The notes under the pieces are model-generated. The model was not told where the DNA came from, did no database searches, and saw only the letters and a list, made by a program, of their open reading frames with translations. A stretch of DNA of 64,000 nt from Podarcis bocagei (lineage: Eukaryota): assembly GCA_964188305.1 (NCBI GenBank), contig OZ076885.1; one strand, given 5' to 3'. Position numbers and translations under genes: made by a program. This document shows positions 610 to 62,700 of this stretch, one piece after another (the first letter of the stretch is position 1; each line of letters starts with the position of its first letter).

Positions 610-3600
610 CTAAAACAATAAGAAGCATGGGACATCCAGTTTCTTACTGAACATTTGACACCTTTCCAAAATAAACAGCAGCAGCCATAGTTGGCAAATG
701 GCACTGACATTGAACAACATATTCCCTTCCCCTTACACACACCATGAGCAAGGAGTGGGATCCCACCATATTTAATCTGACATCCTCCTCTTGCCCACAC
801 ACTCCTGTTGTCTATCTCAACAGGAATGTCCTGTTTTTCTTTATCTCAGGATGTGTGAGAAAGAGAGTTGTGCACACACACTACTATTGCCACCTGATTG
901 AATGAGAGGGAGAGTGACCAATATGCCCCCACCACTGTGAATCTACTACAAACTGGGCATTGTGACCTGTTGCTAATGTTGCCTGGTCATTGAAAGACTG
1001 GTCATTATGACCTCATGCTTATGCTGCCTGCCAGGAGACTGGCTGACCCATGTGCCCTCATACTGATGTTACCCAACCAAAGGAAAAACCGGACAACTTG
1101 CCCTCCCAATGCTACTGCACACCTGAAGGAGGCAGCGACTTATATACCTGCATATAACTGTCCACTTTAATGAGAATTAAATGAGTTTGCAGGGCAGCAG
1201 TTGAAGAAGGAGCAAAAAGGGTTTTCTTGTGTGTGTGTGTTTCTTGTGGCTGATTAGCTCTTTTCCCTGTGTAAAGGTCAGAGGGGGCAGGGTTTCTGTT
1301 GAGGCAGGGGATTAGCTGTGGGAGGAGCTTATCAGAGTTTGCAGGGCAGCAGTTGAAGAAGGAGCAAAAAGGGTTTTCTTGTGTGTGTGTGTTTCTTGTG
1401 GCTGATTAGCTGTTTTCCCTGTGTAAAGGTCAGAGGGGGCAGGGTTTCTGTTGAGGCAGGGGATTAACTGTGGGAGGAGCTTATCAGAGTTTGTAGGGCA
1501 GCAGTTGAAGAAGGAGCAAAAAGGGTTTTCTTGTGTGTGTGTGTTTCTTGTGGCTGATTAGCTGTTTTCCCTGTGTAAAGGTCAGAGGGGGCAGGGTTTC
1601 TGTTGAGGCAGGGGATTAGCTGTGGGAGGAGCTTATCAGAGTTTGTAGGGCAGTGGCGCGCGCCTAGCGGCGCGTGCAGTTATATCCATCTTTTAGATTT
1701 AGGGGAGCTAGTCTCAAACGTTTGTTGGGGGAGACCTAGGTTTTTTTTGTGGGCGAAGTTATTTGTCCTGTCTTCAAGCTTTTTATGATGGAGGACCTCT
1801 GTAGCCACCCCCAACAACACGATCTCAAGATGGAAGGGGAGGGAACAGCTGCAGTCGCCTGCGATTCCTGCGCAATGTTTGCCATCTTGCCAAAGGTTGC
1901 AGGCAGCTTCACCTGCAGCAATTGCATGTTGATTGCCCTTTTATTTTATTTTTTTTAAGTATTTTTATTGGGTTTTCACATTTTATATAAACACAAACAA
2001 CACACATAACACCCAAACAAACATAAAAAACGACAAACATGAATAGTTCCCGAAAATCTTATTTTCTAACCCTAGTCCTTGACTTCCCCCCACCCCCTCC
2101 CCTGCATCCCTGTTCCCAAATTTGTGTCAGCAAGTTGGCATTTCTTCCGTCTTAGTATTAGTCCTTTTATAAAAAACAAAAATAAATTTTCCCTAAGTTG
2201 GACCCAATTCTCTTCCCTCGATTTCTCATTTTTTCTTACATAATTTTCTTATTACTAAACCCCCTGGTCTTGAGTGTTGTTTAAATTTAAGTACTTCCCT
2301 CCCTCCCATCCCCGCTTTGCGTCCTTTCCCAAGACATGTCCAAAATAACAGTTTTTAGCCTGGATTCCGCACATCCGAGGCTCTCAAATCTCTTTCAGTC
2401 CCTCTCCGCCAATTTTGTTGGTAGTCCTTTTTGTCTATCATCGAGTCTCGAAAGATTTCCTTAACCATCAATCCAATCAGTCCATAGTCTCTTCCCATAT
2501 TTAAAGGCAACTGCTGAGGAATTTCCACAAGGCCTAAGTCTTGGTGATAGTCAAAATCGAAGTCTATGTGGAGGCCCCAATTGTACTTCTTTATTTCGAG
2601 TTCCTGAATTCCATAAAGTCCCAGGGCCTCCACTTTCGTCTTCTGTATCTTTCGTAGGCTTAAAGTAGATTTAATCCAATAGTCTCCTTGCTTGTGTTCT
2701 CCAGATGTCGGCTTCTGGTTAGTATTTTCCCAGATAACTTGTTCTCTTTCTTGTTTTGTCTTCTCCTCTTCTTTGTTTATAGTTTCGAATTCAGCTGTGG
2801 GTTCTTTCTCACTCAGGCCCTCATTACATTCAGCAGAGCTACTTGTTTCCAAATCCAAGGTCGTCAATTGTTTACTCATAGCTGTAGTCTGCTCCTGTAA
2901 GGTTCCCACCAGTGAAAACATCCTTTCGATTTCTCTCAGTATCTTTCCACCCACAGCCATTGTAATTCCACAGAATTCCCCCTAGAGGGAATCTGGTTAC
3001 TGAGTAATCTTTTCTCCAACAATCCTCTGTCCTATTATTGTTTCTTTGTTTCCCAAAATTTTAGTTCAATTGTAACTCCTTTTAATCCGGAGAGGTCTTA
3101 AACGGCGATTTTTTTTCACTATTAATAGTCCATTTGACAGCTTTTGACAGCTGTCAAATTCTGCTCCTCTATACAGGCTCCAAAGCAGGTCGCTCCCGGG
3201 CCCGGGAGGGAGGGTTGTTTGCCACAAAACAAAGACTCTTCCAACACTCCACTCTCCTGCTCAAATTTACCTTTCTAAATCTTGGAAGTTACTGTCTTTT
3301 TAAAACTCACCCTTTACAGGGTAGGCACTCCAGCTTAGCTCTTATTTCGTTGCTCTGGATCGTCTGCAAGGGGGGGTGTGGGGACTTCCTTTTGGCACAC
3401 CCCCCGGTCGTCTCAAATTCAGAAGGTAAAAATTTTAAAGTTCAGTTCCAAATTACTCACGGGTTCTTTTTTCAGTCCGAATTTCAAGGAAGGAAGTCAG
3501 CGCTCTCCAGTTATGGCTCGCGGCTTCGCTCAGCGGCGGTAGCGGTCGACTCTCAGTGCCACGCCGTCCCCTGTATCCCCTCCGTAGCCTTTAAAAAGGC

Positions 3601-6600
3601 TCATTGCGAATCAGGGGGGGGCGCTTAAGGCACCCGCCGAGTCTTCAGTCCGCAGGCTTCTGCGCCTGCGGTTTTTAAGGGTCCCCGTGTCGCCGGCACG
3701 GCAAAGACCCATCCACCGCTGAGCCGATTCCCTCCGGAGCTCGGAGGGAATCCGCCATTTCCCGATCGCGTGTTGATTGCCCTTTTAAAAGACAAAGTCC
3801 AGCAACTGGAGGAACGTGTAGCTACGCTCCAAAGAATTAGAGAGCTGGAGCTCTTCTTGGAAGCAACAGAGCACACCGTCCCCACCAAGGAGGAGACAGG
3901 GGACTCCCCTGAGAAGGAGGCTAGTTCATCAACACAGGAGCCAGATATATGGAGAAACGTGACTCAAAGAAGTAGGAGGCCCAGGGTTCACTCTGATTGT
4001 TTAGAAATACACAATCGCTTTGAGGTCCTCTCCCCTAGCATGGAAGATGAAGAGCAGACTCCATTTGAGGATCTCTCCCTCATTACAGTCGATCAGGTAT
4101 ATGAAGACGAGCAGCAAAGTCAGTCCTCAGGGAATGTGCAGGCGACCTTGGAACGGACAGCTCACGGAAGAACCCCGACCAAACCCAAGAGGAGGCGTGT
4201 AGTGGTGATAGGGGATTCCCTACTGAGGGGAACAGAAGCAGTGATCTGTGGGCCTGACAAGATGTCTCGGGAAGTGTGCTGTCTCCCCGGGGCTAAGATC
4301 CAAGATGTAACTGAACGACTGCAAGGAATCATAAAACCCACTGACAAATACCCCTTCCTCTTGGTTCATGTGGGAACCAATGACACTGCAAGCAATAGCC
4401 TCCAGAAGATCAAAAGAGACTACGAGGCTCTCGGCAGGAAATTGAAGCAACTAAATGCACAAATTGTCATCTCGTCTGTCCTCCCAGTTGAACGACGTGG
4501 CCCAGGGAGAGAGGGGAAAATAGTGGAAGTGAACAGCTGGCTTCGCAAATGGTGTAAACAGGAACGGTTTGGATTCTTAGATCACGGACTGCAGTTTCTT
4601 GAAGATGGACTTCTGGCAAGTGATGGGCTGCACCTCACAACGGTTGGGAGGAATGTTTTTGCCAAAAATCTCAGAAACCTCATCAGGAGGGCTTTAAACT
4701 GACTAATGTGGGGGAGGGAGACAGTGCTCCTGAAGGTAGGAGTCTATCAATTAATGAAGATGATCATCCAAATGTCATAGACCAAATGGAGCAAACAGCA
4801 CGCGGACCTAGTGGTGGGAGGAAAAAATCCTTAAATAAGAGACACGGGGGAATGATTAATGGACTTCAATGTCTGTACACTAATGCGCAAAGCATGGGAA
4901 ATAAACAAGATGAGCTTGAGCTCTTGGTACAGCAAACTAAATATGACATAATAGGCATCACTGAAACCTGGTGGGATAAGTCCCACGATTGGAATGTAAT
5001 AATGGGGGGATACAATCTATTTCAGAGAAACAGACCAGACAAGAAAGGAGGAGGAGTGGCGTTATATGTCAGGGATGTGTATACCTGTGAAGAGATCCAA
5101 GATTTAGAACCTCAAAGCCAATGTGAGAGCATTTGGGTCAAAATTAAGGGAGAGAAGAATAACAGAGACCTCATTGTGGGAGTTTACTATAGATCCCCAA
5201 GCCAAACGGAGGACATAGATGATGCCTTCCTGGAACAGATGGCCAAGCATGCAAAAGGAAGGGAGATAGTAGTAATGGGGGACTTCAATTACCCGGATAT
5301 TTGTTGGACGTCAAACTCAGCCAAGAGCATAAGGTCAAACAGATTCCTCACTGGCCTTGCAGACAACTTCATTGTCCAGAAAGTGGGAGAAGCAACAAGA
5401 GGAACAGCCATTTTAGATCTGGTCCTAACCAATGTTGATGACCTGGTTAGTGGGGTAGAAGTGGAAGGATCATTAGGCGCGAGTGATCATGCTCTTCTGA
5501 AGTTTACTATACAGCGGAAAGGAGCAGCCAAGCATACTAGGACTCAATTTCTTGACTTTAAGAAAGCCGACTTCATAAAACTTAGGGAAGTGCTGGGTGA
5601 GATCCCATGGACAGCAATACTAAAAGGAAAGGGAGTTCATGATGGCTGGGAGTTTGTTAAGAGGGAGATAGTAAAAGCACAACGTCAGGCAATACCAATG
5701 AGACGGAAACATGGAAGGTGCCTAAAGAAGCCAGGGTGGCTATCTAAAGAACTTTTAACTGAATTAAGATTAAAAAAGGATGTGTACAAAAAATGGAAAA
5801 GGGGGGAAACCACCAAAGAGGAATTCAAACAAATAGCCAGAACGTGTAGACACAAAGTCAGAAAAGCTAAAGCACAGAATGAACTCAGGCTTGCTAGAGA
5901 GGTTAAAAGCAACAAAAAAGGCTTTTATGGGTATGTTCGTAGCAAAAGGAAGAACAAAGAAACAGTGGGGTCACTCAGAGGAGAAGATGGTGAAATGCAA
6001 ACAGGGGACACAGAAAGGGCTGAACTCCTCAATGCCTTCTTTGCCTCAGTCTTCTCCGATAAAGAAAACAATGCCCGACCTGAAGAATTTGGAGCAAATG
6101 ATTCAGCAAAGGAAACACAGCCCAGAATAACTAAGGAGACAGTACAAGAATATTTGGCTAGTTTAGATGTATTCAAGTCTCCAGGGCCAGATGAACTGCA
6201 TCCAAGAGTATTAAAAGAACTGGCAGATGTGATCTCAGAACCACTGGCAGTCATCTTCGAGAAATCCTGGAGAACAGGCGAAGTCCCGGCAGACTGGAGG
6301 AGGGCAAATGTTGTCCCTATTTTCAAAAAGGGGAAAAGAGAGGACCCAAATAATTACCGCCCAGTCAGTCTGACATCAATAGCAGGGAAGATTCTGGAGC
6401 AGATCATTAAGCAAACAGTCTGTGAGCACCTAGAAAGGAATGCTGTGATCACCAATAGTCAGCATGGATTTCTGAAAAATAAGTCATGTCAGACTAACCT
6501 GATCTCATTTTTTGACAGAATTACAAGCCTGGTAGATGAAGGGAACTCAGTGGATATAGCCTATCTTGATTTCAGCAAGGCATTTGACAAGGTGCCCCAT

Positions 6601-9187
6601 GATATTCTTGTAAAGAAGCTGGTAAAATGCGGTCTTGACTCTGCTACCACTCAGTGGATTTGTAACTGGCTGACTGACCGAACCCAAAGGGTGCTCATCA
6701 ATGGTTCCTCTTCATCCTGGAGAAGAGTGACTAGTGGGGTGCCACAGGGTTCTGTCTTGGGCCCGGTCTTATTTAACATCTTTATCAACGACTTGGCTGA
6801 TGGACTCAAGGGCATCCTGATCAAATTTGCAGATGACACCAAACTGGGAGGGGTGGCTAACACCCCAGAGGACAGGATCACACTTCAAAACGACCTTGAC
6901 AGATTAGAGAACTGGGCAAAAACAAACAAAATGAATTTTAACAGGGAGAAATGTAAAGTATTGCACTTGGGCAAAAAAAATGAGAGGCACAAATACAAGA
7001 TGGGTGACACCTGGCTTGAGAGCAGTACATGTGAAAAGGACCTAGGAGTCTTGGTTGACCACAAACTTGACATGAGCCAACAGTGTGACGCGGCAGCTAA
7101 AAAAGCCAATGCAATCCTGGGCTGCATCAATAGGAGTATAGCATCTAGATCAAGGGAAGTAATAGTGCCACTGTATTCTGCTCTGGTCAGACCACACCTG
7201 GAGTACTGTGTCCAGTTCTGGGCACCACAATTCAAGAAGGACACTGACAAACTGGAACGTGTCCAGAGGAGGGCAACCAAAATGGTCAAAGGCCTGGAAA
7301 CGATGCCTTATGAGGAACGGCTAAGGGAGCTGGGCATGTTTAGCCTGGAGAAGAGGAGGTTAAGGGGTGATATGATAGCCATGTTCAAATATATAAAAGG
7401 ATGTCACATAGAGGAGGGAGAAAGGTTGTTTTCTGCTGCTCCAGAGAAGCGGGCACGGAGCAATGGATCCAAACTACAAGAAAGAAGATTCCACCTAAAC
7501 ATTAGGAAGAACTTCCTGACAGTAAGAGCTGTTTGACAGTGGAATTTGCTGCCAAGGAGTGTGGTGGAGTCTCCTACTTTGGAGGTCTTTAAGCAGAGGC
7601 TTGACAACCATATGTCAGGAGTGCTCTGATGGTGTTTCCTGCTTGGCAGGGGGTTGGACTCGATGGCCCTTGTGGTCTCTTCCAACTCTATGATTCTATG
7701 ATTCTATGATTCTATGATTAATTGTTCCCTTTGTGGCACATATGCAAGATGAAAATATTTTGTAAGTATTCTTCTCAGATTTATAATAAGATCATTTCAT
7801 TTTTTGATGTCCGTGTGCAAATTGGTCAGCATTTGATCTTACTCTGGCATGGACCCAAAGCCATCTTCCTTTCAAGTAGTTCCTCAGTTGTCAGCATTCA
7901 AATGTCAATGTTAACTTTTAGTACAGACATAGGCAAACTCGGCCCTCCAGATGTTTTGAGACTACAACTCCTATCATCCCTAGCTAACAGGACCAGTGGT
8001 CAGGGATGATGGGAGTTGTAGTCCCAAACCATCAGGCGGGCCAAGTTTGCCTATGCCTGTTTTAGTATAACGATCATCATTTTTACTGATGCTGCTGTGT
8101 ATATTGTTATTGTAATTATTTATTGATTTCATTTATGAATCACCTCCTACAAGGCATCCCAAAGTGATTTACCGTACAATACAGTAAAAACAGACATAGA
8201 ACAATTGAATATATTAATTTCACTTCTCTGCCCAGACACACCCCACTATGCGTTTTTGACCTTTTAAAATCCCACACATCTTCACCTGCTCTTGGCTTTA
8301 AAGGGCCAACAATTTCCCCGCCTTGAGGCGTGATCTCCAAGCCATGCCCTGCTGTTTCGAATATATTATGCAGGTTAGTGCTTTGAAGTAATCCACACGC
8401 TACTTTCTTATCAACGGATGTATAGCCAAGAATTCTCTTTATATTAGGCTTGTAATGAAATTGAGACCTACAAAGCTAACAAAACCCAGATTAACTCAAC
8501 AAATACTCATTCAGCCTTGCTTCTTCTTCCTGATGAGTAGCAAAATTATTGGATGCAGCTCTACCATTTGTGCCTAATCTAATGTCAAAAAAAACTAACG
8601 AAATGCCATCAGGACTTCCCCACCTCCTTCCATCCACTCCCTAAATCTGTTCTTAGGGTTCCCCCAATTCTCCATGACTGATTTGGTGAGGGTGCAGGAC
8701 ACACATCAAGGGAGAGAAGGGAAGTCCCATTGCACAGGTAGAAGTCCTTGTGTTGATGAGACACATTAGTTGGATACCACCCACGGTGTGAGTCATTGAT
8801 GAGACCAAAAGAAATAACGTTCTCTATGCTCAAGAAGAACTAGGTGTTAAGTCAAGAACTCCTTGGCTAACTTCAAGGAAGACTATGGATATATAGTTGA
8901 TTCAGTGTCTCTCTCAAAGTTCCCAGATGCTGGTCTCCACACACTGCACAATCTTAAACTTTGCACATTTGAGTGGAGTTTCCAGCAAAGATTTGACAGG
9001 GCTCCTTGCTGCTAATGTAGATGTCTCTCGAAGACCTTGTATGTTGACAGGCCTATTCAGTTGTTTAAACCTTTTCAAGATGAGCCAGTCACTTTTATGA
9101 TTATTTTGCATTGTTTTTATGGTATTTTATGCTTTATCTTACTTCCATATTTTGTTGTACACCACCTTGATATTTTATATGAGGGGT

Positions 9188-18200: not shown

Positions 18201-21200
18201 GCTAGGGCAAATACACTTCCCATTAGCACTCAGGAAGCTCACTTGAGCGCATGGAGTGGTTAGGGTACATATATCACTGCCACGAGCTTAAGCCCTTACA
18301 CATTGCATGTCTTGTGTTTCACAACTTTTCTGGCATTCTGATCCAGTCACACTTCGGCCAGCAGAGCTGCAGTCAAAGTAGGACATTGGATAAGGGCAAT
18401 CTGGAACAAGGACACAATTACCAAGACAAGAAAGCAAGACAGTGTAAAACTATGCATAGCACTCAGCAGACTCCAGAACCCCAGATGTCTAAAATGTAAA
18501 ACCATTCCAACCATCAAGGGCATAGATATATGCTCATAATTTTCCTTCTCTACGGAAGCTTTATTATCGCTGTCTCCCAATGTTAGTGACACAATAGATG
18601 TGATGCAAGTGATCTGTTGTCAAACCCCCCAATGCTTTTTTCTTTACTTGAACTGGATTGAGGGGTGAGTAGCAGCTTAACTCAAATCACGCTCCTTTAC
18701 AAACTTATTCAGAGATGGCGATAGAGATAGAGCTTGTCCTAAAGCAGATAGAGGCAACTTTAAAAGCTACATACAAGAGCTGTAGAGATTGTGTCCTCCC
18801 TAAAAGAGGGAACGTTTTGCAATGAGACCTGGAGACCAATCCCCTGTGTTGTGGGTGGGTAAGATTGGTCAGCCACAACACCCGATTGGTAGGTCCCTCA
18901 GTGCTGGGTTTTATCGGACCAATAGGGTGCAGTCCAAATGGATTGAGGGACCTATACATACCCATGCACATGACCCAGAGCTTCCACTTTTGGTGCGTGC
19001 ATTCAGAACACCCGCCCACCTCTCCCTGTTTTTAGGGCTTGTGCGCTTGACCTTCTATGCCATTGTGTGTCGTCTGTCGTTGGGACAGGGGCAGGAATTT
19101 TCCCCACTTGGCTGATTGGCTGTTGCCATTTGGGTTTCGCCTGCTGTGTAGCAAATCGTCACAACTTGTAAGGTTGTGGATAGGCCCTGGTTCAGGTGAT
19201 AGGGATGGGGGAACACTCTCCCATCCCTATGTGAAGGGTATTCTGTGAAAGGAATCCAGGGACTCGATGGTTTGGTCAACCCCTGAGAGGGGGTTGTGCC
19301 CATGCCTGAGTCTAGGGGGACATCTTGATGGCGGACATGGTCTGCTCCCGACTTTTTGCCTATCCAGGTGTTCACCCTTGGCTGACCTATGCTGGAACTC
19401 TGGGTCAGCGCTACCTGCAAGTGTGTAGGGAGCTAGTCGAACCAGAGCCTATGCCACCACTCACTTTCTGTAATCAATAAAGTTGTGGCCTAAATTCTGC
19501 CAAAAACCAAACTAAAATTTGAGTCAAGTGTGAATTTATTCAGCGGGGAGGTTTCTGGGTCATAACACGCAAAAGCAAATGCAGAGGGGACGGGGTTGAA
19601 TTTGATCCCTAAATCTAGGATTCTCCAGAGGATCAAGAAGGATCAGATCCTAACTTGTGCATGTGGAACGCGACAGTAGTTCAAAACAAATGTCAGATTC
19701 CAACATCTTGGTTTAAAGTTGCATAGTAAGTAAAAAAGAGGTCTTACCTTTCTTTGTTTCTGTGTTTTCAATGCAATCTAATTGTCCTCGAATGCACTTG
19801 CTAGAGATATTAAAACACAAAAGGGAAGTCTCACACAAATGCATAAAGAGGGGGTGTGGAAAACTACCCAAGTTCCAGTCATGCAAATACACCCATCCCC
19901 AAGATAAGCCATATCTGTAATCTATATCTTGCCCCTTGGAAACAAATGCCTTTTAAAATCAAGGTGCCTTTAATTAACAGGTTCTGGTTCTTTTGAGGAT
20001 TTGCAACAACCTTTTACAGACATGTTTTGACTATTAATATGGTTGTGAGGAAGGTGCAGGGGAGGTTGTATTTCCTGAGAATGCTCAGGGGACTGAATCT
20101 ATCCCAGCACCTACTTCTGTCCTATTATCATAGTACCATTGAGAGTGTCTTAACCTATAGTATATTATCGTGGTATGGGAGCAGCTCTGAAACGGATAAA
20201 AAAGCTTTACAGAGAACAATTAAAATTGCCCAGAATGTTATTGGGCTCCGACTACCAACCCTGGATGAGATCTTCACGTCTCGCATTTTGAAGAAGTCAT
20301 ATAATATACTGAGAGATCCCACCCATCCTGCTCACAACTTCTTTGAACTATTGCCTTCGGGCAGAAGATATAGGACAATGAAAACACGAACCACACGCCT
20401 TCTGAATAGTTTCTATCCAAGAGCTCTGATTGCACTAAATAATGATCTCAGGGCCAGTTGCAAGGTTTAGCAAGCAGAGAGTAGGAAGGAATGAGATAGG
20501 TTTTAGGTTATGTTTTAGGTTTTAGGTTATGTTATGCCTTAATAGGTCATGTTATATTCTGGATTATGTTATGTTTTATAGATTATGTCTGAATAGGATG
20601 AGAGTGTCGGAGATACGTGCAAATGTATATGTGAACCCGGTCTTTGGGTGGGTGTTTGATTTTCGTTGTTGTGTATACTGTGTATATACGGACAATGACA
20701 ATAAATTTATCTATCTATTAACTAAATAACTTTACCACACGAGCTCATCCTTTTGAAATGAACTTCTGGGTTGTATCAGCAGGCCCTTGTGGTAACATGG
20801 ACAGTCCTCTGGAAAGACACATTCTTCCTCATTCATTAGGTAAGTTCCCTCAGGGCAGCTGCAGCCATCCACAGGGATAGTCTGAACACTGCATAGCACA
20901 TCAGGCTCCCTCAGGGACCGGCAAGAGTTGTTGCAGAACTTCACTTCATAGCTGTATACCATATTCTTAGGGCACTCTGCTGAGGCATCTTTGCAAAAGA
21001 AGAAAAACAAGGGATAGAATGAGCAAAGTGAGTATGCTTATCTTAGACTCCAAAGAACAATAGTTTATTTCACAAGGGAAGCAGCAAGGCTCCTTGCAGG
21101 AGGCCCTTCAAAACAAATGAGACAAGCTGCAATCCCAAACATAATGGAAATGATTTCCCTTGATTTTAATGAAGCAGGTTGGTTGGTGAAGTCAATGTGA

Positions 21201-59783: not shown

Positions 59784-62700
59784 CCTATCTATCATCTATC
59801 TATCTGTTGGATGAAATCTAACATTGTGTGAGTGGGCTTTGCTTGCACAATAGGACATTTCCTTCCCTTGGGTCCCTTCCAACTCTATGATTCTATTATT
59901 CTCTCCTCCCCATAGCCTCTTCAAAACTCCCCTCCTGATGGATAGGCCATTTTACTGACAAATAGGCACAACTGGATCCTAGGCTGTGTTAAGAAGCCAA
60001 ATCACTTATTGTTGGCAAAGCGTTAACTCAACCCAAAGTAGCATGTTAACAGTTTATAGTTTAAACTATGTAAATGTCATGAAAAATGAGTCAAGGGAGA
60101 TACAGTACAAACTAATTTTCAAATCTGTTATTAATTATCTAGTTAACAGGGTGTAGCTTTAAATCATAAAAGGCATTTGACTCATACCTCTACTTTGATA
60201 GGAACAGATGAGAGAGTGTGTATGCGTATATCCTGAGTCTCATGCTTTATAATGAGAGTACGTGGACAGGACACTGGTTCCCTTGGGTCACAGTGATAGT
60301 TATCAATGTACACTCCAAAGTTGTCGATGGTTTTTACAATCTCTTCCACCAGGGTGTAGGTACAGTTGCCTTGGTAACTGTAGTAGAGGCCATCAAAGGT
60401 CTTATAATGTGGGTCTCCCCAGCCGGTGCAGTAGCCTTTAGAGAGACAATAAAATTGATTGGTTGGTTCTTGTTTGGCAGCACACATAGGAATATGAATA
60501 ACATTTTGTTTCAGGAAGGGGGAAGAGAGCCTAATGGCTCTTGCACTGAGAAAGTCTAGATGGAGTTTGTCACAGAAACTGTGACATTGAGTAAGAGACT
60601 GTCAGCCCCACTAGCAGCACTAATGGCTCAAGAAACTAGAATCTCCTTCTTGTGCGTATTACAATAACATCAAAACACAGGATGGCAAAGAAGCAATTTG
60701 TTTTAGATCTCCATTTGTATTATCAGGCATTATGTGCTCATTAGCAAAACATATATTTTTGACATTAGGGGCATGGCTTCCAGGTGCCACTCCCCCCTTC
60801 TCCTCTACCAGCCCCCATTTCTCCTCCTCTTGCGCCTCACCCTCACTTACTGTAACACAAAACATATTTTTTCTTTAACACCACTGGCACTGCTACTGCC
60901 ACTAAGAGGAGGATGGGAGCAGGGTGGCACATTGAGGAGAATGGGGGTGGGGGCAGTGCAAACCCCTTGTGCAGGACCTACTTAAAAGTGAAATTCTAAA
61001 AATAAGATACAAATCTTCAAGCTTTTCTGGAAGCTGTCTTTTTAGACCTGGAAGCCATGCCTCACATTGATTATTTTCAAAATAAAAAAAATTCCTTACA
61101 GTAGCACCTTAAAGACCAACTAAGTTAGTTCTTGGTATAAGCTTTCGTGTGCATGCACACTTCTTCAGATACACTGAAACAGAAGTTGCCAGATCCTTCT
61201 ATATATTGAGAAGGTGGGGAGGGGTATTACTCAGAAGGGTGGTGGGAATCGGAGATTGGCAGATAGCTGAGATGAGCCTGTTGACGACTCTTAACGACTG
61301 TAATAGGTCTTACAGGAAAAGGCAAGGGGTGAGAAGGTGAGAAATGGCTTAGTCATGTATAATGAGATAAGAATCCAATGTCTCTGTTCAGACCAGGTCT
61401 CTGAAGGACACTGAAGGAGCTGAAGGACACTGTTGGCATTTGATGGCATACACAATGTTAGACGATGAGCAATTAAATAGTCCCGAGATGGTATGTGTGA
61501 TGTTGTTGGGGCTGGACAGCCACCCAATCTTAAACAACTCCTAACCCACAATAATACTACAACCAGACTTAACACGGACACTGGCACCAGAGCCTGCAAT
61601 AAACCCAGATGCCAACTTTGCTGCCACATACACCCGGACAACACCATTACTGGCCCCAACAACATCACACATACCATCTCGGGACTATTTAATTGCTCAT
61701 CGTCTAACATTGTGTATGCCATCAAATGCCAACAGTGTCCTTCAGCTCTCTATATTGGACAAACAGGCCAAAACTTACGCCAAAGAATAAACGGACATAA
61801 ATCTGACATCAAGAATCACAAAACAGAGAAACCAGTAGGAGAACACTTCAATCTCCCAGGACATTCTATACAAGATCTCAAAGTAGCTGTTTTACTACAA
61901 AGGAATTTCAGAAATAGACTGGAAAGAGAAGCTGCTGAATTACAACTCATTACCAAACTTAAAACAATGGAGAGACCTGGTCTGAACAGAGACATTGGAT
62001 TCTTATCTCATTATACATGACTAAGCCTTTTCTCACCTTCTCACCCCTTGCCTTTTCCTGTAAGACCTATTACAGTCGTTAAGAGTCGTCAACAGGCTCA
62101 TCTCAGCTATCTGCCAATCTCCGATTCCCACCACCCTTCTGAGTAATACCCCTCCCCACCTTCTCAATATATAGAAGGATCTGGCAACTTCTGTTTCAGT
62201 GTATCTGAAGAAGTGTGCATGCACACGAAAGCTTATACCAAGAACTAACTTAGTTAGTCTTTAAGGTGCTACTGTAAGGAATTTTTTTTTATTTTGACTA
62301 TGGCAGACCAACACGGCTACCTATCTGTAATTGATTATTTTGTTACTGTGTGTGATAAGGGAAGAGCATTTCTTGCATATGTTTGCAGGCTCCTTTCAAT
62401 CCTTGCACCGAAAAGGGTTCAGAGGGTGAGCCATGAGCAGAAACTCCCTCACTCTATGTTCAAACATATGAAAGACACAAAATATCTAATTGCAGCTCTA
62501 CACTGATACAGGTATTCAAAGGGGAAACAAAAAGTTATATGATGCACTTATACTGCCATACATCCTGAATTTCCAGGACACGTCCTGGAATTCGCTTCCA
62601 AAAATGGCGTCTTGGATTATTTTCAGTAATCAGGCAAATGTCCTAGAAAACTGGCAACGGGCTAAATTGTGCCGAAAATGCCTAAGAAAGCTCCAAAGCT

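Follow-up and report, generated by a model that had tools for sequence, protein, structure and literature searches.

Programmed -1 frameshifting into a polymerase ORF is described for the ORF1a/1b junction of nidoviruses (coronaviruses, arteriviruses; PMC5009743, PMC3542737, PMC11818727), and a canonical -1 signal is stated to require a structure 5-9 nt downstream of the slippery heptamer (PMC3542737). Retroviruses and LTR retrotransposons likewise fuse a structural ORF to a reverse transcriptase (RT) ORF at low ratio, as in the Gag-Pol products of Rous sarcoma virus (-1) and of Ty1 and Ty3 (+1) (PMC5009743, PMC5911963). Among non-LTR retrotransposons, a figure legend in one review gives a -1 frameshift as needed for translation of ORF2 in the Dictyostelium elements TRE5-A and TRE3-A (PMC5911963), and for L1 and SART1 the sources cited here give reinitiation as the route to ORF2 (PMC5972666, PMC1965478, PMC3708506, PMC5009743). 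How LINEs produce ORF2p is a long-standing open question, for which reinitiation is the textbook answer. CR1 is the dominant LINE in birds and reptiles. The literature searched held no report of frameshifting in vertebrate CR1; the older primary CR1 papers, which lay outside that search, may mention it.

This study followed up an earlier note, made from the letters of the sequence, which had proposed a coronavirus-type frameshift site at the ORF1/ORF2 junction of a CR1 copy in the window, that is, the whole 64,000-nucleotide stretch of Podarcis bocagei (contig OZ076885.1) that was analysed. Compared with the ORF1a/1b junction as described for nidoviruses, the CR1 junction has the identical heptamer in the identical phase and a -1 frame leading to a polymerase ORF; it differs in having no pseudoknot or stem-loop 5-9 nt downstream and in that the zero-frame stop is the very next codon. 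A stop likewise adjoins the slip site in some viruses, among them Rous sarcoma virus and equine arteritis virus. With TRE5-A and TRE3-A, as presented in that legend, CR1 shares its place among the APE-type non-LTR retrotransposons and would share the -1 frameshift for ORF2, although the Dictyostelium elements belong to another host kingdom and another element type (their ORF2 has a C-terminal zinc finger). Gag-Pol, in the accounts cited, would be matched in the low-ratio fusion of a structural ORF with an RT ORF, but CR1 has no LTR, and because no protease domain was detected by a Pfam search, a CR1 fusion would not be cleaved except by a host protease. L1 and SART1 are described as having a bicistronic LINE RNA with low-level ORF2 after ORF1 (PMC5972666), which they have in common with CR1; the ORFs of L1 are separated by a 63-nt spacer and those of SART1 overlap at stop and start, whereas CR1 has a conserved slippery heptamer and is AUG-less in some families. 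Finally, amniote CR1 LINEs with an esterase ORF1 (the ZfL2-1-like ORF1p class as characterized in PMC3905857) have the same architecture as the window element, and the new point relative to them is the route by which ORF2 would be translated.

Architecture and age of the CR1 copy

The CR1 copy in the window is full length but interrupted (Table 1). A reading as a 5'-truncated copy was considered and rejected, as the 5' UTR repeats and the ORF1 start are present and ORF1 is broken by an insertion. The 152-bp units of the 5' UTR are 98% identical to one another, and presumably resemble monomer-type LINE promoters. The N-terminus encoded by the 5' piece of ORF1 is common to uninterrupted copies; in the window copy, the zinc finger is separated from the rest of ORF1 by the 1827-bp insertion. 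The esterase of ORF1 matches PF13472 (E 1.6e-9) and PDB 4C1B (E 1.2e-37). The features of a CR1 LINE are therefore present, namely an ORF1 with zinc finger and SGNH esterase (interrupted here), an ORF2 with APE and RT domains, and the 8-bp tail, which we take to be a CR1 hallmark; the CR1 clade label itself is provisional, following the earlier note and the esterase match to 4C1B. A phmmer search of the APE region against PDB gave no endonuclease match, and the Asn of the YTNA motif may correspond to the catalytic Asn of the L1 endonuclease, in line with a Pfam match that starts at profile position 11.

ORF2 of the window copy meets a premature stop at 7534-7536, whereas the family stop lies at 7627-7629, so that 947 codons are counted from the heptamer as against 978 in copy L191. 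Because of the ORF1 insertion and the early ORF2 stop, the window copy is dead and neither protein can be made whole. Its family is very young in the lizard genome. All 40 scored matches, out of 1346 candidates, are identical over 4560-4960 (401 bp), and the window ORF1 is 92-98% identical to lacertid ORF1 proteins.

Table 1. Features of the CR1 copy and of its ORF1/ORF2 junction, in window coordinates.
Feature	Position	Strand	Basis or remarks
CR1 5' UTR, 3.1 tandem copies of a 152-bp unit	1183..1653	+	also seen in copies L191 and L192 (5' part)
5' piece of ORF1, with its start codon and a CxxC..CxxC zinc finger whose cysteine codons fall in 1860-1925	1785..1943	+	sequence reading
A-tailed young element, 1827 bp, within ORF1	1944..3770	-	17-bp target-site duplication 1927-1943 / 3771-3787
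3' piece of ORF1: coiled-coil-like stretch, then a linker and the SGNH esterase (about 4280-4648); C-terminus A-L-N	3771..4702	+	PF13472, PDB 4C1B
Slippery heptamer U_UUA_AAC, made up of the two final sense codons of ORF1 and the wobble base before them	4693..4699	+	conservation comparisons
ORF1 stop codon, directly 3' of the heptamer	4700..4702	+	TGA here; TAG, TGA or TAA in relatives
Linker, open in the -1 frame only	4700..4875	+	about 60-61 codons from heptamer to YTNA motif
G-rich motif, conserved: five Gs (+11 to +15) followed by another purine run	4710..4722	+	candidate stimulator
Small hairpin of the earlier note	4727..4742	+	starts 28 nt past the heptamer; no conservation; folds no better than shuffles
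ORF2 body: APE endonuclease about 4882-5490, RT about 6328-6978	4876..7629	+	domain matches, comparison with copies
3' UTR and 8-bp tandem tail (tail 7687-7719, 4.1 copies)	7630..7719	+	

Slippery heptamer and reading frames

The 3' end of ORF1 reads GCT TTA AAC TGA at 4691-4702. The claim that T_TTA_AAC at 4693-4699 stands in X_XXY_YYZ phase relative to the zero frame was borne out by the sequence and the ORF reading, as was the claim that ORF2 occupies the -1 frame of ORF1, open from 4624 to 7533; this frame carries the APE and RT domains. Two features of a canonical -1 site, an in-phase X_XXY_YYZ heptamer and a downstream ORF open in the -1 frame, are thereby present at the junction. The word TTTAAAC by itself is common, with 10 occurrences on the plus strand and 7 on the minus strand (17 in 128 kb, counting both strands of the window). 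A canonical heptamer in phase is found at only 5 of the 1300 codon positions of ORF1 and ORF2, of which 4693-4699 is one. When the linker of the young lizard family was shuffled, it stayed open in 1.5% of 5000 trials.

Of the 14 junctions tabulated, 7 have a -1 frame that closes 1-5 codons before the heptamer; in an older lizard family it closes 7 codons before it. Since the frame is shut just before the heptamer, there is no entry into it from upstream in those junctions. The linker from the heptamer to YTNA ranges from 37 to 93 codons; it ends in the -1 frame in 9 of the 11 junctions in which the APE motif was found, and is stop-free in 7.

Conservation of the heptamer across CR1 families

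Within the young family, the heptamer and stop read TTTAAACTGA in 89 of 90 loci and TTTAAACTGG in the remaining one, the loci having been gathered by protein searches between which duplicates are possible. The linker is in frame and open in 81 of the 88 loci with a located APE motif. The older family of the same genome was located through an APE pattern independent of the junction, and 25 of its 55 loci (L156-L180) were aligned, the other 30, partly truncated or duplicated, being left out. The heptamer is intact in 17 of these 25 decayed copies, and the 1-2 letter differences in the other 8 are as expected because the copies are only 79-90% alike. For bird-type CR1, a label that reflects the likeness of metagenome loci to bird proteins, 60 loci were considered. 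A profile covering the 75 nt before the heptamer, but not the heptamer itself, was made from many of the very loci that were then scored; it located the ORF1 end in 16 loci that continue past that point, and TTTAAAC stands there in 15 of the 16 (the exception is L042); L067, which has an internal deletion, carries it as well. Conservation of the heptamer and its -1 phase across CR1 lineages, put forward in the earlier note as a check, was thus found in four deep lineages, the lizard families and three bird-type groups being about 45-55% identical upstream of the heptamer.

When 15 ORF1 ends were aligned by codon, nnT TTA AAC was invariant (15 of 15) while the residue encoded by nnT varies (A in 12, otherwise S, C or T). 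In the same alignment, 42 of the 44 other columns with a conserved residue use at least two codons, and all nine other Leu columns use three to six. Because nnT TTA AAC is invariant while other conserved residues change codons, we read the constraint on the heptamer as one that acts on nucleotides and not on the protein alone. From these alignments, the CR1 ORF1 end is a real and deeply conserved recoding candidate.

Among the loci retrieved with protein queries P0059, P0096 and P0101 for more distant families in the lizard's own genome, only the young family was represented; pattern searches for further distant families in that genome gave 0 and 2 matches, and the CR1 junction was not found in viral contigs, GTDB genomes or plasmids.

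At the protein level, a C-terminal L-N is present in 81 of 120 ORF1 homologues from lizards, a snake, turtles, birds, frogs and distant contigs. Among the best 150 cluster representatives at 50% identity, 76 reach the ORF1 end, with L-N in 52, Q-G-N in 5 and S-K-N in 1; one L-N-ending ORF1 protein comes from a shark. The residue before L-N is one without a T-ending codon in 1 of 45 distinct ends, as against 19 of 45 and 18 of 45 at the two preceding positions (Fisher p 4e-7, which is overstated since the sequences are related). Of the 29 proteins of a distant clade, 15 end x-G-N, where x is Q, A, V or K, and the other 14 end otherwise; read from protein letters, the x-G-N ends would fit the heptamer G_GGA_AAC. 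The L-N and x-G-N ends are, to judge by these letters, what two different slippery heptamers would give, and PMC5009743 counts both U_UUA_AAC and G_GGA_AAC among the heptamers most prone to shifting. Judged by names and domains, none of 14 longer homologues stood out as a natural in-frame fusion of ORF1 with ORF2. Other C-termini of the distant clade, G-F-L-G, G-F-F-R, L-G-F, S-L-N-C, M-F-F and S-K-N (in proteins P0310, P0305, P0315, P0311, P0309 and P0258), could, to judge by protein letters and post hoc, also spell slippery heptamers at most one codon before the stop.

Search for a downstream stimulator

The description of the site as coronavirus-type held for the heptamer and its phase and did not hold for the stimulator, as no conserved downstream structure was found; because the test for such a structure failed, the site is not classed as coronavirus-type here. 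The structured stretch with a CTCCT/AGGAG hairpin that had been described downstream can be drawn, but five folds of it were no better than shuffles (z -0.28 to +1.16), and the proposed comparison for covarying structure yielded none common to relatives. Folding 15 junctions with quadruplexes allowed and again with them disallowed gave 30 folds, of which one reached z < -2 (in a copy with a deletion); a quadruplex was chosen in 2 of the 15. Additionally, an RNAalifold consensus over 11 junctions contained 0 pairs, and a search for H-type pseudoknots did better than shuffles in 1 of 10. The stem-loop or pseudoknot 5-9 nt downstream that a canonical -1 signal requires was not found by these searches.

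A G-rich stretch, which had been placed about 8 nt downstream, does exist, although the G-run starts 11 nt after the heptamer, at 4710. All 18 junctions have G at +12 and +13, all 17 scored at +14 have it there, and 15 of 18 have it at +11. In the -1 frame, the +11 G falls at the third position of a codon for a variable residue, which points to a role at the RNA level. Two pairing partners for the G-rich motif were tried, and neither was supported. A pyrimidine stretch in the 3' UTR was rejected, since in 4 elements 3-30% of windows gave better pairing and its letters show no covariation with the motif. A stretch of ORF1 640-680 nt upstream was the top match in 6 of 21 junctions but is inconsistently placed, lying after the N-R-F motif in the young family and before it, in proline codons, in bird-type loci, and being absent elsewhere. 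As a separate observation, a small hairpin recurs about 28-30 nt past the heptamer in one bird-type group (L032:1260-1290, L036, L043, L044 and L066); its distance is like that of the hairpin in the window, but its sequence is unrelated and its energy weak.

Translation of ORF2

From the observed site, its phase, its conservation at the nucleotide level, the open linker and the AUG-less older family, we infer that ORF2 is probably reached by a programmed -1 frameshift at the heptamer, which would give an ORF1p-ORF2p fusion. In the proposed mechanism, most ribosomes would decode U_UUA_AAC as Leu-Asn, meet the stop at the next codon and release ORF1p with its zinc finger and esterase, and a minority would slip back by one base on the heptamer, re-pair on UUU and AAA, and run through the linker of about 60 codons into the APE and RT domains. 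The predicted fusion would have about 1330 residues (357 + about 976) and stand in a fixed low ratio to ORF1p. Our guess is that the ribosome would be slowed by slow decoding of the adjacent stop together with the G-rich motif at +11 to +23, not by a local pseudoknot, and that the motif may be bound by a protein or paired with a partner that our searches did not find.

The alternative that requires most weighing is termination followed by reinitiation, either at a nearby AUG or near-cognate codon or in an AUG-independent manner as in L1, which would give a separate ORF2p and make the heptamer and G-run parts of a reinitiation signal. Six bird-type loci (L032, L033, L036, L039, L042 and L066) have an in-frame ATG 2 nt past the ORF1 stop and three more (L034, L035 and L049) have GTG or TTG there, and the young lizard family offers GTG 4708 (in good context) and the in-frame ATGs 4786 and 4852, the latter preceding the entire APE domain; such codons favour reinitiation, as does the lack of a frameshift stimulator in our searches. 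In the older lizard family, the majority sequence of the 25 aligned copies, taken column by column, first shows an in-frame ATG within the YTNAQSM motif, ATG occurs in at most 5 of 25 copies at any column, and neither ATG nor a near-cognate codon stands in the -1 frame before codon 33, all of which speaks against it. So do L043, L044 and L058, which have no start codon near the stop (in L058, no in-frame ATG precedes the APE motif). An AUG overlapping or adjoining the ORF1 stop gives a mixed picture, being present in the six bird-type loci and absent from both lizard families and from L043, L044, L046, L056, L058 and L065. Precedent exists, as reinitiation is given as documented for SART1 and proposed for L1 (PMC5972666), and L1 is reported to tolerate loss of the ORF2 AUG (PMC1965478). 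Reinitiation leaves the exact X_XXY_YYZ phase, the rule of a T-ending codon before L-N and the switch to x-G-N unexplained, however, and we consider it unlikely to be the explanation of this junction, although it may coexist with frameshifting in the bird families.

Two other accounts do without recoding. The heptamer might be kept for a needed Leu-Asn C-terminus plus some RNA or DNA signal of another sort (in packaging or termination efficiency, for instance), with slippage incidental; L-N is indeed nearly universal in the protein and TTTAAAC is a common word, but a protein constraint does not fix synonymous positions, the related clade ends in G-N, and the solved ZfL2-1 esterase (4C1B) aligns to profile position 324 of 327 with the final A-L-N outside the match, so this account strikes us as very improbable. 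Joining or exposure of ORF2 in the RNA, by splicing, a subgenomic RNA or polymerase slippage at T3A3, can draw on the AG near the junction in families with a TAG stop, whereas the young lizard family has TGA, not TAG. Runs of three bases are short for polymerase slippage. Four RNA runs labelled as the species of a close relative, with 627-785 reads each over 3780-5780, were even in depth across the junction (about 40-50 reads) without joints or a step, and had no insertion or deletion at 4693-4699 at a threshold of 3 reads in 100. These reads lie on both strands and come from many copies, which at low depth could hide rare forms; they speak mildly against splicing and polymerase slippage, and an RNA-level explanation seems to us barely credible.

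A programmed -1 frameshift at the heptamer, our preferred reading, would place a LINE polymerase on a route normally associated with viruses. The conserved slip site predicts the true N-terminus of CR1 ORF2p and would explain the ORF2s that have no start codon; it therefore bears on CR1 annotation and on the design of constructs for retrotransposition assays, and the missing RNA roadblock makes the site of interest to recoding biology itself. More tentatively, and with more doubt than confidence, we suggest that esterase-type CR1 across animals may use an ancient -1 frameshift with interchangeable heptamers (U_UUA_AAC in vertebrates, G_GGA_AAC in the distant clade) to make an ORF1p-ORF2p fusion with no folded RNA roadblock, driven by the adjacent stop and by a protein-binding G-rich motif at +11 to +23 (the protein being a host factor or ORF1p). 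Were this so, natural frameshift stimulators would gain a new class, and a lipid-type esterase would share one chain with the reverse transcriptase.

Additional observations

In RNA run X22, adaptor-like loose ends occur in 7 and 12 reads where the G-run begins (4709-4711). These are probably a template-switch artefact rather than an RNA start, since identical loose letters occur elsewhere.

The element inserted at 1944-3770 has a GC-rich 5' end, and its 5' part is 99-100% identical in all 40 scored matches (out of 2707 candidates); the whole 1.83 kb is present at 3 of 3 other loci. Its one open stretch of 208 codons (2355-2981) has no Pfam match and no match in the protein atlas. We read the element as non-autonomous and LINE-mobilised, and possibly ORF1-only.

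One CR1 ORF1 protein, P0040, is named as a Klebsiella pneumoniae SGNH hydrolase and lies on a 2.9-kb contig; the record is likely vertebrate DNA in a bacterial entry. Elsewhere in the window, long open stretches on the plus strand at 19997-20470 and 61481-62020 resemble, as judged by eye, pieces of other retroelements, namely the C-terminal part of a LINE ORF2 and a GIY-YIG-like Penelope part.
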